NCBI GenBank assembly: GCA_016840085.1
Contig: JAEOTA010000018.1
Span: 32,001 to 96,000 of the forward strand
DNA length: 64,000 nucleotides
DNA from: Promethearchaeota archaeon
GTDB taxonomy: Archaea; Asgardarchaeota; Lokiarchaeia; Sigyniarchaeales; SOKP01
Reading direction: 5' to 3'
Position 1 is the stretch's first letter. Each line of letters starts with the position of its first letter. Under the pieces are notes generated by a model that saw only the letters and a list, made by a program, of their open reading frames with translations, was not told where the DNA came from and did no database searches. This document shows positions 17,277 through 25,437 of this stretch, piece by piece. The position numbers were made by a program, and so were the translations under genes.

Positions 17277-17434
17277 TTTTTCAAACCACCAATATCTAAT
17301 TACCTTATGTAATTATTTATAAATTATAAATTTTATTAGTTCTGCTTCTTTCTTTGAATAACCTTGGTTTAATAAAAAACCATTTAAATCTTATATTCAT
17401 AATGTTAATAAAAACATGTTCAATTAGAATTCAA

Positions 17435-18352
17435 ATGTTCAAAGAGAAATTTAACGAAGGAATAATAAGTGCCAAGCAATTTGATAGGGAAGATATTGAA
17501 TATATCTTAAATAAAGGTAAAGAAATGATTCATATTAAAAATTCAAATCTTCTAAGGGGAAAAATTCTATCTACATTATTTTTCGAACCATCAACTCGTA
17601 CTCGTCTAAGTTTTGAATCTGCCATGTATAGACTAGGAGGTAATGTAATAGGCTTTCATTCTGGGAATGTGTCTTCTATTAAAAAGGGAGAAAGTATTGC
17701 AGATACAATTAGAACAGTAGAAAACTATAGTGATTGTATTGTGATCAGACATTCGCTAGAAGGCGCCGCTACAATGGCTGCTAAATTTGCAAAAGTTCCG
17801 ATAATCAATGCTGGATCTGGAAGTGGAGAGCATCCTACACAAGCATTATTAGACTTACTCACAATAAATGAGGAAGTTGGCTCACTAGATGGATTAAATA
17901 TAGGTTTAATGGGAGATCTTAAGTATGGCAGAACTGTACATTCTCTTTCGATTCTATTATCAAATTTTGATGTAAATATTTACTTCATAAGCCCCTTAGA
18001 ATTAACAATGAGAAATCGGGATAAAGATTTTTTACTCACCCGGCAGGTTAAATATAAGGAAATTACAAATTATCGTAAAATTTTGAACATATTAGATGTT
18101 CTATATATGACTAGGATCCAAAAGGAGAGATTCATTGATTTAGAGGAGTATGAAAAAGTTAAAGATTTCTATAATTTTAGAGAAGATGATCTTGAAGATA
18201 CAAAAGATAATTTTAGATTATTGCACCCTCTTCCGAGAATTACCGAAATTTCTCCTGAAGTAGATAATTCTGAGAAAGCTATTTATTTCAAACAAACATA
18301 CTACGGCATCCCTATGAGAAAAGCAATTTTGGCAGAGTTGATGACGGATTAA
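17435..18352 (+). CDS. pyrB: Aspartate carbamoyltransferase catalytic subunit
   Basis: FFEPSTRTRLSFE, HPTQALLD, GDLKYGRTVHSL, TRIQKERF, HPLPR; ATG at 17435 preferred over TTG 17354. Confidence 0.97.
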   Translation: MFKEKFNEGIISAKQFDREDIEYILNKGKEMIHIKNSNLLRGKILSTLFFEPSTRTRLSFESAMYRLGGNVIGFHSGNVSSIKKGESIADTIRTVENYSDCIVIRHSLEGAATMAAKFAKVPIINAGSGSGEHPTQALLDLLTINEEVGSLDGLNIGLMGDLKYGRTVHSLSILLSNFDVNIYFISPLELTMRNRDKDFLLTRQVKYKEITNYRKILNILDVLYMTRIQKERFIDLEEYEKVKDFYNFREDDLEDTKDNFRLLHPLPRITEISPEVDNSEKAIYFKQTYYGIPMRKAILAELMTD

Positions 18353-18386: not shown

Positions 18387-20372
18387 TTACACAGAATAAT
18401 TATTCAATGTAAACGCACTTATTTTTGAATCTATTAATTTGCTGAAGACTTTAGTTAATGAAATTTCATCAATATTGAAATGATTGTTAAAAACTATTCC
18501 ACCATTCAGTATTGTTTCGAATTTTTTGAATAGGACGATCTTCTTATCTAATGATAAGGGGGAATTTTTTCGAATAATTGTTGAAGAATATGATTTGATT
18601 TTTTCTTCATTTAGAGTTATTCCATTATACCATGAGTCTTTTAAATACATATCGTTGTGAGGTTGACTGAGAATATAATAATCATTATCCTTTTCATTAT
18701 TTTCATTAATAATTTGTCTTATAAGAGATAATATTTTTAAGGCGAATGATGTACTATTTTTAGTTCTATCAAGTTCTATTCCACAATGATTTAAAATTGC
18801 TTTATTTAAGCCGAAAAAACTAATTGATTTTACAGCCTGACTATATATTTCTTCTTCAGATTTCTCAAAAATCTGTGAGGTTAGGGAATTCCACTCCCTA
18901 ATAGATTTTAATTTCTTTCTTACCAGTGATTCTTTAAACTTAAATAATTCAAAAATAGAAACTAATTTTTCTTGTAATAATTCAAAAAATAAGTCGTCAT
19001 TGTGGTTTGATTCAACTGAAATCATATGTAAATTTATTAAAATCTTATCTAGTATAATCCTATTTTCTTTAGGATTCTCTATTTTAATTAAGGTCGAATT
19101 TAATAAATCAGAAGAAGTTTTATGATAAAATATTAAATTTTGTTCAAATAATTTTGAAAGATAGTTTTTAACAGAACTATTTTCTAAATCTGATTGAGCT
19201 ATTTTGGCATAATCAAACAATATTAAGGGTTTATTATGGATATTTTTTTGTTTAGTTAAGGAATTAAGAATATTATTATTAATTTTAAAATGAAGAGAAC
19301 TCTCATTAAATGAATCCGCGTTAGAACAAAATTCTAACGATAAATGAATTTTATTATCATCAAGAAAATTATTAAATCCAAACATTTGGAAGGCTAATAA
19401 GTCGAAAAAATATAATTTGTGTTCTGGTAGATCAAAATGTGAAAGAAATTGGTTGTTAAAATCACCTAATAAAAGATCTTCAGAAAAAAATTGTTTTAAT
19501 TGATATAAAAGATGGAAAAATTTAAGGAGTAGATATGAATAATCTCTACTTTTTTCTATTTTAGTAGGGAGAATAGAATTTTTCTTAAAAAGAAAAGACA
19601 TTAGATTTTTAGTATTTAGATACAAACTTAAGGGTCTTAGACTCCAGTAGTTCAAATTTAAAAGCGCAATCTCTCCTGTCAAGTATAAATCTGCTAGGTT
19701 TTTTGGAAGGAGATTTAAGAGTAAAAACTGCTCAGACACATCGGAACCCAATCTAGTAATAAAATTCTCAGGAGTGATCTTGGTAATGTTCGAATCAAAT
19801 AATTGAAATGCTTCGGATGGAGGTGTTCCTAATCGAGTAAGTTTATGTCTAACTTCTTCTAAACCATTTTCTAAAAGAATTGCATTAATATATTCACGCA
19901 TTAATGGTGCTGTCATATAATCTATATTAGTCTTTGAAAGACGTTCTTCTACTTCATGGACAATTTGTTTAGCTAAATAACGCTCTAGTTCACCCTCGTT
20001 TACTAAGTATTCTTCAATTTTCTTTATATCAAACTTTTCTTTAGAATATTTTGAAGTTCTAATCATTCTTACTTTGTTTTGATTAATAAGAATTTGCTCA
20101 ATCGATAAAATATTATTTAAAATTTGCTCTCCCAATAAAGATATTAAATATCCTTCTTCAGAGGATTGAATTAATTTGCTCCTTTTTAAGGTTTTTAAAT
20201 GGAAAGACAAATTAACAGAAGAAAGATTAATTCCTAAAACTTCCTTCTGAAGCTTTGAAAATGGGATTGGTATTTGAGTATTTTTTAATTTTTTTAAAAT
20301 GTCAATCCTAACCTTTTGGCCTAATGTTTTTAATTGTTTTTCTAAAAGGGTTTGGTTTTTGTCGGTATCCAC
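18387..20372 (-). CDS. ArsR-type wHTH + ATP-cone + degenerate class III ribonucleotide reductase (NrdD-like) fusion protein
   Basis: RIDILKKL...LSFHLKTL wHTH; IRTS...FDIKKI...TAPLMREYINAILLENG ATP cone; TRLG, SISFFGLN, LNGG NrdD remnants; no glycyl-radical loop. Confidence 0.8.
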   Translation of the reverse strand: MDTDKNQTLLEKQLKTLGQKVRIDILKKLKNTQIPIPFSKLQKEVLGINLSSVNLSFHLKTLKRSKLIQSSEEGYLISLLGEQILNNILSIEQILINQNKVRMIRTSKYSKEKFDIKKIEEYLVNEGELERYLAKQIVHEVEERLSKTNIDYMTAPLMREYINAILLENGLEEVRHKLTRLGTPPSEAFQLFDSNITKITPENFITRLGSDVSEQFLLLNLLPKNLADLYLTGEIALLNLNYWSLRPLSLYLNTKNLMSFLFKKNSILPTKIEKSRDYSYLLLKFFHLLYQLKQFFSEDLLLGDFNNQFLSHFDLPEHKLYFFDLLAFQMFGFNNFLDDNKIHLSLEFCSNADSFNESSLHFKINNNILNSLTKQKNIHNKPLILFDYAKIAQSDLENSSVKNYLSKLFEQNLIFYHKTSSDLLNSTLIKIENPKENRIILDKILINLHMISVESNHNDDLFFELLQEKLVSIFELFKFKESLVRKKLKSIREWNSLTSQIFEKSEEEIYSQAVKSISFFGLNKAILNHCGIELDRTKNSTSFALKILSLIRQIINENNEKDNDYYILSQPHNDMYLKDSWYNGITLNEEKIKSYSSTIIRKNSPLSLDKKIVLFKKFETILNGGIVFNNHFNIDEISLTKVFSKLIDSKISAFTLNNYSV

Positions 20373-20687
20373 TTTTCTTTTTGAAATTATATTCTTTCTT
20401 TAAATATGCTTATCTAAATAATATGTTTAATAATTATATAAAAATTTAGGAATTTTCTAAATAGTCAATGATTTTAGATAATATGTGGGTGATATGAACC
20501 TTTCTTTTAAGAGATTAAACATTATAGTTAAATTATTTTCGTCAAAAAAATATTTAACTTCTAAATCTCATCTTTCCACATTATTGTAATTATAAAAATT
20601 GGACTCCTTTTTGATTAAATTTCTTTTTATGTATTAAAAAATTATAAAAATCATTTTTAAAATCTTTGATAAAAGCGTGAAGTTTAA

Positions 20688-22163
20688 ATGACAGATAAAA
20701 AGCAATCTACTGAATTAGTATTAGGAGAAAATGAAAAAGATATTCTGGAGGACAATAGTAAACACTATTTCCAAGTAGATTTTTTAAAAGCGGCGATGAT
20801 ATTTTTAGTTATTTTTGATCATATGGTATCTTGGGGTGTAAAGCGCGATATTGGTGTAACACTTTGGGAACGAATATCTATTCCCATATTTTTAGTGATA
20901 ATAGGATTTAATATGGGGCTTTCCTTTAAAGGGAAAGGGGATCTAACATTAAAGCAATTATATTCCAAAGAGTATTTCAAACGAAAGATTTTACGATACA
21001 TTGTCCCATTTCTTATTCTATATACAGTATCAACTTTTATAGGATTGTTTATGTATGGATTTGATATTATTGAAATGTATGATCGACAATTTTATCCCTC
21101 TCATGGGTTCATGAACTTATTTATAGGAATATTACCTTTTTGGGGTCCAGGAAATTGGTTCATACCTGTGATTTTGCAGTCGATTTTAATATTGCCTTTA
21201 CTTTATAAAGGGTTTACTAAAAAACCTGTTCTGACTTTAATTCTATGTTTTCTTGTGGAAATTGCTATGCAAACAACTGTGTTTTTCTTAATAGGAGAAA
21301 TTTCATCATGGGAAGAAATTCATATTTATAACATGTTTGCGACAAGTATTTTATTCTATCTTTCTGCTGTTGGATTAGGTATGTGGTTCTCATCTGGATA
21401 TAAGCTTGAAGAAAATAGAAACTTTTTTATGTGGTTTTTGTATCCGATTAGTTTAGCGTTTATTATTGCGTATCAATTCTTTGGTTTTAGATTCATGATT
21501 GGCAATGTTTCATTTTTAAGGGGAGATTACCATTTATTAATTTTTCCTTATTCTGCGTTTTTGTTTTTACTCGCCATGAGATTTTTACCGCAAAAATCAG
21601 AAAGGCGAATCTCACGAGCAATAACACTGATAGGGAAATCTACTTATCATATCTTACTCATACAAATTTTAGGATATGGCATGATTACTGCTTATTGGGG
21701 AACTCATTATGGGATAGATGTTGGTTTTGAGCCCGATGTAATATTGGACATGATAACTGCTTGGATCCTTTTCATCTCATTCGGAATCCTATGGTATAAA
21801 ATAGATCAAAACAAGGATATATCAAGACGTGTTCTTTATTATATAAATTTTTTCATCGTATTTACCTCACTATTATTTTTTTCTTTCTGGGCTCAAGGCT
21901 TCTGGATACCGATACCACTTCTAATCATCCTTGGCTATGCAGTTATAGCTTTAATTACTATCTCTATTATTAAAAAGCCACTTAAAACAAGGATTTTGGG
22001 ATACTGGAGTTTATTTTTATTGGTAACTTTCATAATGTTAGTTCTACAGGTATCAGTCTTTCAACGGAGCGAATTTTGGATCTCATTGATTCCTATTGGA
22101 GTTTGCCTTATTTTTGCGATATTAGGGACACTTTTGGTTTATTTTCCAATTAAAAAAAAATAA
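20688..22163 (+). CDS. Acyltransferase-3 (OafA-like) membrane acyltransferase with C-terminal extension
   Basis: QVDFLKAAMIFLVIFDH, IPIFLVIIG, NWFI, IGKSTYHILLIQ. Confidence 0.85.
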   Translation: MTDKKQSTELVLGENEKDILEDNSKHYFQVDFLKAAMIFLVIFDHMVSWGVKRDIGVTLWERISIPIFLVIIGFNMGLSFKGKGDLTLKQLYSKEYFKRKILRYIVPFLILYTVSTFIGLFMYGFDIIEMYDRQFYPSHGFMNLFIGILPFWGPGNWFIPVILQSILILPLLYKGFTKKPVLTLILCFLVEIAMQTTVFFLIGEISSWEEIHIYNMFATSILFYLSAVGLGMWFSSGYKLEENRNFFMWFLYPISLAFIIAYQFFGFRFMIGNVSFLRGDYHLLIFPYSAFLFLLAMRFLPQKSERRISRAITLIGKSTYHILLIQILGYGMITAYWGTHYGIDVGFEPDVILDMITAWILFISFGILWYKIDQNKDISRRVLYYINFFIVFTSLLFFSFWAQGFWIPIPLLIILGYAVIALITISIIKKPLKTRILGYWSLFLLVTFIMLVLQVSVFQRSEFWISLIPIGVCLIFAILGTLLVYFPIKKK

Positions 22164-22281
22164 TTTATAATTCTCTTTTTTTAATTATTAAAAACTGGAC
22201 TACTAATATCTTTAATAACAATTTATTATTTTTTTAAATATCAATTATTTTTAAATTACTAAGTTTGGAACGTGTTTTTTT

Positions 22282-22956
22282 ATGAGTATGAATGTAATTA
22301 AAAAAAAATTTAGTGTAGGAACTATAGGGTTATGGGCAATCTTCTTTATTGTCACTATTGTAATGGTAGGTCTACTAATAGGAGAAGTTTTCTTTGAATC
22401 TGATATTTGGATACCTATTATCCCAATTGGGGTTTTACTAGTTTTAGCAGTTATGGCTACTGCTGTAGAACTTAGATCTGAAAAGAGGGTTAAAATAGGT
22501 ATTATTGGAGCATGGACAATATTTTTAATAACCACAGTTGTAATGGCCGCTCTTATATTCGGAGAAATTTTCTCACCTGATGAGTTTTGGATTCCTATGA
22601 TTCCAGTCGGAACTTTATTTATTCTCGCAATTATCCCCACAATTTTACATTACATCTCAGGAGAAGTAAAATTTTGTCCTAAGTGTGGAAAAAAGTTTGA
22701 AAAAAAATGGGAATTTTGTCAAGAGTGTGGTAAGAGAGTGCTTATGGCCTGTCCATCTTGTGGTACGAAAGTTAAGGGAAATCCTAAATTCTGTCATAAA
22801 TGTGGAACAAATTTAAGCGAAGTTGAAATTGTACAAATTTTTCGACCTCCTACGAAACCAAAAGCTCAGAATCAAGCTAATTTTTGTCATCAATGTGGAG
22901 GCCCTGCAAATCCAGAAGCTAAGTTTTGCGGGTTTTGTGGTGCTCCCAAAACATAA
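22282..22956 (+). CDS. Membrane protein with two repeated TM hairpins and C-terminal double zinc ribbons
   Basis: Two ~57-aa hydrophobic repeats, then six CxxCG pairs. Confidence 0.85.
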   Translation: MSMNVIKKKFSVGTIGLWAIFFIVTIVMVGLLIGEVFFESDIWIPIIPIGVLLVLAVMATAVELRSEKRVKIGIIGAWTIFLITTVVMAALIFGEIFSPDEFWIPMIPVGTLFILAIIPTILHYISGEVKFCPKCGKKFEKKWEFCQECGKRVLMACPSCGTKVKGNPKFCHKCGTNLSEVEIVQIFRPPTKPKAQNQANFCHQCGGPANPEAKFCGFCGAPKT

Positions 22957-24189: not shown

Positions 24190-25437
24190 TTATTCTACTC
24201 GTAAATCAAGACTTTTAATAGCATTATAACAAATATCAATGCAAGCATTTAGATTTGTTTTCGAGCATTTATCAGGAGTATCTCTTTTAGAATGAATATA
24301 TTTTACATCTTTATCTGATATAAAAGCGCTGACCTGAAAACCATCTTTCCCCGCTTTTTTAGCAAAAGTTTGAAAGACTTTATGATCACTGAAATTTCCT
24401 AAAACCATAGTTTCTTTTACAAATGATATTTTTTGATGAGTAGCTGATGCTTCTAAAATATTGTTTAAATTTGTATTTATTTTTTTCTTCTTAAATAATC
24501 CAGCGATATCTACTAGGCCTACGTACGTTCCCACCATGTCGATATTAATGTTATAAGATTTATCTAAATCATAGTCATGATTTAATTCTTCGAAATGTTT
24601 TAAACAATATTGTTTTGAGCCCATGTAGCCCATTTCCTCAGCTCCACACCAAATAAATATGACGTCAGTTTTCTCAAGCGGGTTTTTTTTAATTAATTTT
24701 GCTAATTCTAACAAAATTGCGATTCCACTTGCATTATCGATAGAACCTATTGATTCATCTAATTTTTTATTCTCAAGAATAACAATTATCATGATAAGAA
24801 GAGATCCTCCGATAATTAATGAGATATTTCTTAACAATAAAAAAATATTATCTATTTGAATGATAGAAAATAGAGCTAAAAGAGACCATATTGAAAGAAT
24901 TAAGGTTAAAATAAAATATGCTAAAAAGAGAATAAAAGTGGATATATATAGGACTATCTTCATTTTCATCGAATATCTTTGAGATAAAGTATCATGATGA
25001 GCTGAAAAAATAATAGCAGGTCTTCTTGGATATATGTCTTTAGCATTAATTGTGGCTATAACATTTTTAGACTCTTGTTCTCTGCCAAAATGTAAAATTC
25101 GTGTACTATCGAATAAAAATTTCACCCCGAAATAAATAATGATAATAAATAGAATATCCAGTGGCAAATAAATCCAAGCAATATTTGGGTAAAATGAAAT
25201 TATTCCACAAATAAAAATATAAATAAAGATAAATATAAATCCCAATTTTGTTAAAATTGTTAATGAAATATACCATTCAAAAGTTTCTACAGAAGTTTGA
25301 ATCTTCTCCTTATCTAGGTCCTGCATTATGTAATTTATACTTTTAGTTTCACCTTCTGTTGCTGCCCGTCTTTTAAAAGCAAGATTTTTTACATGATTTT
25401 GTGCTGCTTGCTCGTCATAGAGAGTTAAGGTCGACAT
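24190..25437 (-). CDS. Membrane-embedded M28 family metallopeptidase
   Basis: SAHHD, DNASG, AEEMG, NIDMVG, IHSKRD zinc-ligand motifs; several TM helices. Confidence 0.88.
   Translation of the reverse strand: MSTLTLYDEQAAQNHVKNLAFKRRAATEGETKSINYIMQDLDKEKIQTSVETFEWYISLTILTKLGFIFIFIYIFICGIISFYPNIAWIYLPLDILFIIIIYFGVKFLFDSTRILHFGREQESKNVIATINAKDIYPRRPAIIFSAHHDTLSQRYSMKMKIVLYISTFILFLAYFILTLILSIWSLLALFSIIQIDNIFLLLRNISLIIGGSLLIMIIVILENKKLDESIGSIDNASGIAILLELAKLIKKNPLEKTDVIFIWCGAEEMGYMGSKQYCLKHFEELNHDYDLDKSYNINIDMVGTYVGLVDIAGLFKKKKINTNLNNILEASATHQKISFVKETMVLGNFSDHKVFQTFAKKAGKDGFQVSAFISDKDVKYIHSKRDTPDKCSKTNLNACIDICYNAIKSLDLRVE

Follow-up and report, generated by a model that had tools for sequence, protein, structure and literature searches.

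The window, by which we mean the whole 64-kb stretch of lokiarchaeal DNA analysed here, contains a gene that joins a winged helix-turn-helix domain and an ATP-cone to the barrel of a class III ribonucleotide reductase (RNR, NrdD). We call it the fusion gene in what follows. Its features and those of its surroundings are listed below in window coordinates.

17354..18352 (+): pyrB, the convergent neighbour, 34 nt away; synteny conserved, candidate operator absent
18387..20372 (-): fusion CDS with GTG start, 661 aa; winged helix, ATP-cone and dead class III RNR barrel
18399..19778 (-): class III RNR barrel, residues 199-658; Z 30.4, rmsd 3.1 Å, 436 residues aligned to 8P27
19821..20072 (-): ATP-cone, residues ~101-184; the variant found in active archaeal NrdD cones; dN/dS 0.10
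20079..20345 (-): winged helix-turn-helix domain, residues ~10-98; Pfam DUF7347; HxlR/ArsR/MarR-type folds at Z 11-12; dN/dS 0.17
20357..20365 (-): candidate operator CCGACAAAA over fusion codons 3-6; also 5′ of nrdD and nrdJ
20436..20444 (-): TATA-like element, 72 nt before the start codon; position almost constant among orthologs; putative promoter
20477..20495 (-): second conserved element with TATCAC core, ~120 nt upstream; in 32/36 orthologs, absent at nrdD and nrdJ

Domains and fold of the fusion protein

Pfam finds the DUF7347 winged helix at residues 14-87 (E 1.3e-8), an ATP-cone at 103-174 (E 2.3e-4, slightly below the curated cut-off) and a partial NRDD domain at 442-648 (E 3.5e-14). 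The NrdD equivalog model TIGR02487 gives the 661-aa protein 56.7 bits, where its cut-off is 326. A PDB sequence search with the fusion returned no useful match. Class III RNRs are the top structural matches of its AlphaFold2 model (mean pLDDT 86.5), in which residues 199-658 superpose on residues 120-675 of P. copri NrdD (8P27) with the values listed above. The 10-stranded alpha/beta barrel is present entire, and the chain stops at its final strand. In P. copri NrdD the glycyl-radical domain occupies residues 676-739 (PMC11226230); the fusion is without this domain, since its chain ends where the domain would begin. Pfam and the superposition bear out an earlier note on this DNA, made from the sequence, which had read the gene as a winged helix, ATP-cone and dead NrdD; the NrdD remnant motifs it listed are there and line up with NrdD landmarks.

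A model of residues 1-190 places the head among HxlR/ArsR/MarR-type winged helices, with Z 11.8 to CzrA and SmtB, level with the HxlR and MarR types. The ArsR model NF033788 gives 26.3 bits, and its cut-off of 55 is missed. The head is thus ArsR/HxlR/MarR-like by fold and no ArsR member by score; the description 'ArsR-like' in the earlier note stands for the fold and falls for the family. The modelled ATP-cone matches the cone of NrdB 5OLK (Z 11.6) and that of NrdR 7P37 (Z 11.2), with NrdD 9D3X within 11.2-11.6, and its residues are near-invariant and identical in kind to those of active archaeal NrdD cones. Profile searches reported no NrdR family match for the protein; its N-terminus is a winged helix without CxxC, and the NrdR-type Zn-ribbon with its RRRR motif is absent.

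A complex model of residues 1-440 gave a homodimer score of 0.66 (best control 0.00), passing a mark that 20 of 30 solved homodimers attain, against 1 of 23 single chains, though the pass may stem from likeness to solved NrdD dimers. Dimer runs showed contact agreement of at least 94% and pLDDT of at least 74. The modelled interface, made by the cone and residues 177-221, has a conservation of 0.78 versus 0.54 elsewhere, and the winged helix takes no part in forming the dimer, which uses cone and barrel.

Loss of catalysis and age of the family

Alignment to intact archaeal NrdD shows that the finger-loop QCC segment is absent from the fusion, that the RPFC cysteine has become Ser249, and that the substrate-holding NxN flap, the HxH motif and the Glu of PAES are all lost. 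The Ser249 column holds Cys in 7/7 intact NrdD, whereas in 95 fusion rows none of its common residues is Cys. No radical loop or Zn pair occurs in 121 close homologues, nor any intact radical loop or RPFC-type cysteine motif in 114 helix-fused representatives of 50% clusters. Other lineages have longer orthologs (~710-780 aa), in which the Zn CxxC pairs are often retained; the Zn domain has been lost stepwise within the fusion family. These longer proteins were considered as intact enzymes with a fused helix and rejected as such, since their radical loop is degenerate and their finger loop is missing. A split gene supplying the missing RNR part was likewise rejected: the next gene is the convergent pyrB, and the intact nrdD stands by itself, complete, on a different contig. 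The fusion is a catalytically dead pseudoenzyme. This is what the earlier note had proposed on seeing no finger-loop cysteine and a chain that ends before the glycyl-radical loop; a catalytic Cys or Gly loop, sought by structural alignment and in a split gene, was not found.

Orthologs are present in 57 of the class's 61 genomes and, within the phylum sample, in five more families. The fusion family also reaches Bathyarchaeia and Nitrososphaerota, where its gene is often the one immediately ahead of nrdD or nrdJ. In a quick tree, drawn midpoint and run without a bacterial outgroup or one-clade test, all 40 fusions and one probably truncated row split from all intact NrdD with SH-aLRT 98. The fusions are one old family. 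The recognition helix comes in two lineage types, N[LF]S[FY]HL and AG[KR]F. An 89% identical ortholog in a close genome (L012:6001-7671; L, G, C, P, f and g labels are our own handles) stops at 556 aa, possibly through a frameshift or assembly error.

From 11 close pairs, dN/dS is 0.12 for residues 185-250 (the cone linker), 0.39 for 251-435, 0.18 for 436-575 and 0.39 for the C-terminus; with the values listed above for winged helix and cone, every domain is under purifying selection, including the winged helix that the earlier note had expected to be conserved. The tree and these ratios reject a recent decay of the local nrdD. The specificity site is probably lost in the Lokiarchaeia lineage, because its elements sit in the relaxed half of the barrel and its motifs are gone; the suggestion that the protein may keep this allosteric site is accordingly unlikely here, that half being the least constrained.

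The constraint on the second barrel half (0.18), together with Cys530, which is invariant in the 120 closest homologues, could speak for a barrel newly used for catalysis or ligand binding that has nothing to do with nucleotide reduction, in a gene that does not regulate nrd genes. Yet Cys530 aligns to a non-catalytic Thr column of NrdD and is not retained in the longer orthologs, the Zn domain was shed in steps, and no new conserved active-site set was seen. We give this reading the lowest probability of those weighed here.

Other NrdD-like proteins have also lost their chemistry. A second dead NrdD of 602 aa lies on contig C24 of the same genome (G000; L009:6120-7928, +). It consists of ATP-cone and barrel without winged helix, cysteines or radical loop, is conserved in many genomes of the family, and branches in the tree as the sister of the local intact NrdD; the candidate site is found in only 2 of its 14 5′ regions. 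Its inactivation was a separate and later event. Several more NrdD-like proteins that have neither winged helix nor radical loop fall in separate clades (P0201, P0215, P0230, P0233, P0236, P0242, P0243, P0245, P0252, P0257 and P0259), and NrdD seems to have been inactivated and retained more than once in archaea. Stand-alone ATP-cone proteins of 138-190 aa are encoded in this genome and in f2 genomes (L010:858-1274, +; L234-L236).

Genome context and the candidate operator

The genome encodes an intact nrdD, with an intein, and an NrdG2 activase above cut-off, each on another contig, and a class II RNR (nrdJ) elsewhere. We had looked for a separate intact nrdD and nrdG, and both are there; radical-SAM matches are absent from the window, in agreement with the earlier remark that no NrdG lies nearby. 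No match to NrdR was found in this genome, which is 98.8% complete. Both working reductases carry long in-frame intein-like insertions (L008:6193-9753 and L011:5915-9652), that of nrdD at the RPFC cysteine.

Adjacency of pyrB and the fusion gene is common to many Asgard lineages, in varying orientation. One relative has the gene row fusion-nrdD-thioredoxin, with the fusion gene directly upstream of nrdD and the row convergent on pyrB. Nitrososphaerota copies lie directly upstream of a class II RNR, and no pyrB is near the copies examined. The fusion gene is convergent with nrdD in G067, and in some relatives it is not adjacent to any reductase. Most simply, the pyrB adjacency is a remnant of an older fusion-nrdD-trx-pyrB block. 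Two further observations concern neighbouring DNA. Genes for an acyltransferase-3, a membrane/zinc-ribbon protein and a peptidase-like protein (window 20688-22956 and 24190-25437) split the rpoA-L30e-nusA-S12-S7 block, which in other relatives runs uninterrupted into the fusion gene. The word AACGATTAY is common to 3/3 Nitrososphaerota spacers between fusion and class II RNR genes (L112, L115, L122), three sequences only.

Retention of the entire barrel and of a modelled NrdD-like dimer surface, and the presence of a second dead NrdD without DNA-binding head in the same genomes, would suit a role at the protein level, in which an inactive subunit heterodimerises with NrdD or buffers dATP and DNA binding is secondary. 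The fusion gene is nevertheless kept where no intact NrdD was found: in G055, a single-contig genome with fusion and class II RNR, in other f2 genomes and in G003/G037. It also stands beside a class II RNR in Nitrososphaerota, and its winged helix is strongly conserved. We consider such a role improbable; the binding of active NrdD as a core function, raised in the earlier note, is excluded by G055, where no class III enzyme was found.

The fusion gene of this family carries CCGACAAAA at its own 5′ end in 35 of 36 orthologs with aligned 5′ regions. Of 29 family genomes, 27 have the same 9-mer ahead of nrdD, at a distance of 60-90 nt. At nrdJ, 12 of 30 genomes have a CCGATAAAA or CCGACAAAA variant no further than 60 nt from the start; over 300 nt, 17 of 29 have the site in one form or another, and ~40% of nrdJ 5′ regions are without one. 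An inverted relaxed copy precedes nrdJ in 4/4 f2 genomes, two g3 and two g2, and f2 and g3 have such a copy ahead of the fusion gene too; the site is found in either orientation. Relaxed sites number 37/37 at the fusion gene, 25/27 at nrdD and 22/29 at nrdJ versus ~3 in dinucleotide shuffles, the loci being kin and these operator counts not independent events. Control 5′ regions gave 0/35 for pyrB, 0/24 for rpS7 and 0/26 for nrdG.

Because the site overlaps fusion codons, we considered the motif as a protein constraint; codon usage rejects this. Codon 3 ends in C in every case although it encodes T, A, S, P, V or F (background 8-16%, and 8-12% for the listed residues tested), and GAC is the only Asp codon seen in the operator (background 16%). 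Three orthologs have a stop codon after the site, which hence lies outside the coding frame there. The operator is conserved at the nucleotide level. A genome-wide repeat was rejected too: counts equal those of a reversed control, without enrichment, and no more than 0.8% of the genes in this genome have the strict site close to the start. Among its intergenic copies are some that form repeated, IS-like ends.

The site goes with the protein's recognition helix: lineages with N[LF]S[FY]HL show it strongly, those with AG[KR]F only weakly (8/24 relaxed, shuffles 2.7). The few 5′ regions examined from lineages with the other recognition helix yielded no equivalent site. As a non-palindromic 9-mer, CCGACAAAA is short for a dimer; in G039 and G055 the sites form outward-facing pairs 25-51 nt apart, which would fit a dimer with two distant winged helices.

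The earlier note had linked the gene to pyrimidine synthesis, having seen it converge on a pyrB without adjacent pyrI. That arrangement is as described, pyrI lying on another contig, and adjacency to pyrB in many Asgard lineages would be expected if the protein regulated pyrB and pyrI, not reductases. The link itself fails at the pyrB 5′ regions, none of which has the operator; the orientation of the pair varies, loss of nrdD from a fusion-nrdD-trx block convergent on pyrB explains the adjacency, and pyrB is missing near the Nitrososphaerota copies examined. A pyrimidine regulator is very improbable.

The site also occurs at genes other than reductases. It lies between a divergent RHH gene and a gene for a 216-aa protein in 15 of 29 genomes, and also in G033; it stands ahead of a TBP-containing operon in G039; and a small orthologous gene of G039 and G055 (L309:2999-3298, L311:1768-2085) lies downstream of the outward-facing site pairs. 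Either reductases are not the whole regulon or the site has a different binder. The divergent pair itself (L238; G000 C51:22777-24079), RHH/CopG-like plus 216 aa, is present in 39/41 family genomes; the 216-aa product looks cyclin-box-like by eye, and the spacer holds a TGCATC/GATGCA palindrome. Two other candidate members were dropped, a TFB-like gene on C69 (site conserved in only 3/28) and an ORF at C85:39964 (no homologues found).

These loci, with the site conserved at the RHH/216-aa pair, at the small gene in two f2 genomes and at the TBP-containing operon in one, are what would be seen if CCGACAAAA belonged to a broader factor, such as a growth or cell-cycle regulator, that co-regulates the fusion gene, the reductases and others, the fusion being a nucleotide-sensing DNA binder with its own targets elsewhere. 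However, the query used did not find the RHH candidate in four f2 genomes where both nrdJ and the fusion gene retain the site. The site follows lineages with one recognition-helix type and shows no genome-wide enrichment, and reductase adjacency in other lineages points independently to nrd targets. We hold a broader factor to be unlikely.

Predicted role and relation to known systems

On sequence and modelling grounds we favour, with fair confidence, a dimeric, ATP/dATP-sensing and autoregulated regulator of RNR genes that is NrdR-like without being a member of NrdR. Synteny and the shared site support the NrdR-like control of reductase genes that the earlier note had envisaged. The protein would descend from an old class III RNR duplicate that gave up radical chemistry, acquired a winged helix and turned into a transcription factor for RNR genes. 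It would form an NrdD-like homodimer with the barrel as dimer scaffold; binding of ATP or dATP in the cone would set a cone state that repositions the two winged helices, and these would bind CCGACAAAA half-sites at nrdD, nrdJ and the protein's own gene. The most likely outcome is repression, by roadblock, because in this family 73-81 nt separate the site from the TATA-like box upstream of it. High dATP would then lower reductase expression and limit synthesis of the regulator itself. The regulon probably includes a few more genes.

A wider claim can be made only tentatively: that many Asgard and TACK archaea rely chiefly on the dead-RNR family to sense dNTP status for transcriptional control, the family acting in Lokiarchaeia through spaced CCGACAAAA half-sites on a regulon that extends to the RHH protein and a TBP paralogue and so ties dNTP pools to wider programmes.

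NrdR, the bacterial RNR repressor built of Zn-ribbon and ATP-cone, is rare in archaea (PMC9110341). The fusion family is a direct candidate for fitting reductase expression to the demand for dNTPs in Asgard and TACK archaea. If the proposal is right, an RNR has been reused as a regulator of its own genes, convergently with NrdR. What is new here is the candidate operator, apparently common to the fusion gene, nrdD and many nrdJ. In Lokiarchaeia it matters because regulator and targets are not neighbours, and with a 9-bp site the idea becomes cheaply testable by binding. Annotation is also affected: databases label the fusions anaerobic RNRs, so that class III counts can be inflated, including in genomes where no class III enzyme was found. 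No description of the fusion family was found in the literature searched, which left out most subscription journals, nor any described case of a regulator built from an RNR or glycyl-radical barrel.

Other enzyme folds have been turned into transcription factors, as in archaeal ThiR and B. subtilis PurR. NrtR joins a Nudix domain to an HTH in the same way (PMC2330246). The fusion resembles all three in reusing an enzyme fold as an effector domain beside an HTH and in being annotated as an enzyme by databases; the folds and pathways are different. With ArsR/SmtB, HxlR and MarR proteins it shares the fold of residues 1-100, but it falls below the ArsR cut-offs, and its modelled dimer forms via cone and barrel, not winged helix. 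With NrdD (P. copri 8P27/8P23, T4 1H7B, T. maritima 4COJ) it shares the ATP-cone, the full barrel and probably the homodimer. It differs from NrdD in lacking the thiyl Cys, the second Cys, the glycyl-radical loop, the Zn site (in this lineage) and the substrate-binding motifs, in its extra N-terminal winged helix, and in branching separately from all intact NrdD. A functional parallel that we propose is NrdR, in which an ATP-cone is likewise joined to a DNA-binding domain; like it, the fusion is predicted to control several RNR classes and itself. The DNA-binding domain of the fusion is a winged helix, not a Zn-ribbon, with a dead barrel of 460 aa attached, and its candidate site is a non-palindromic 9-mer at nrdD and nrdJ, whereas NrdR uses paired palindromic 16-bp boxes.
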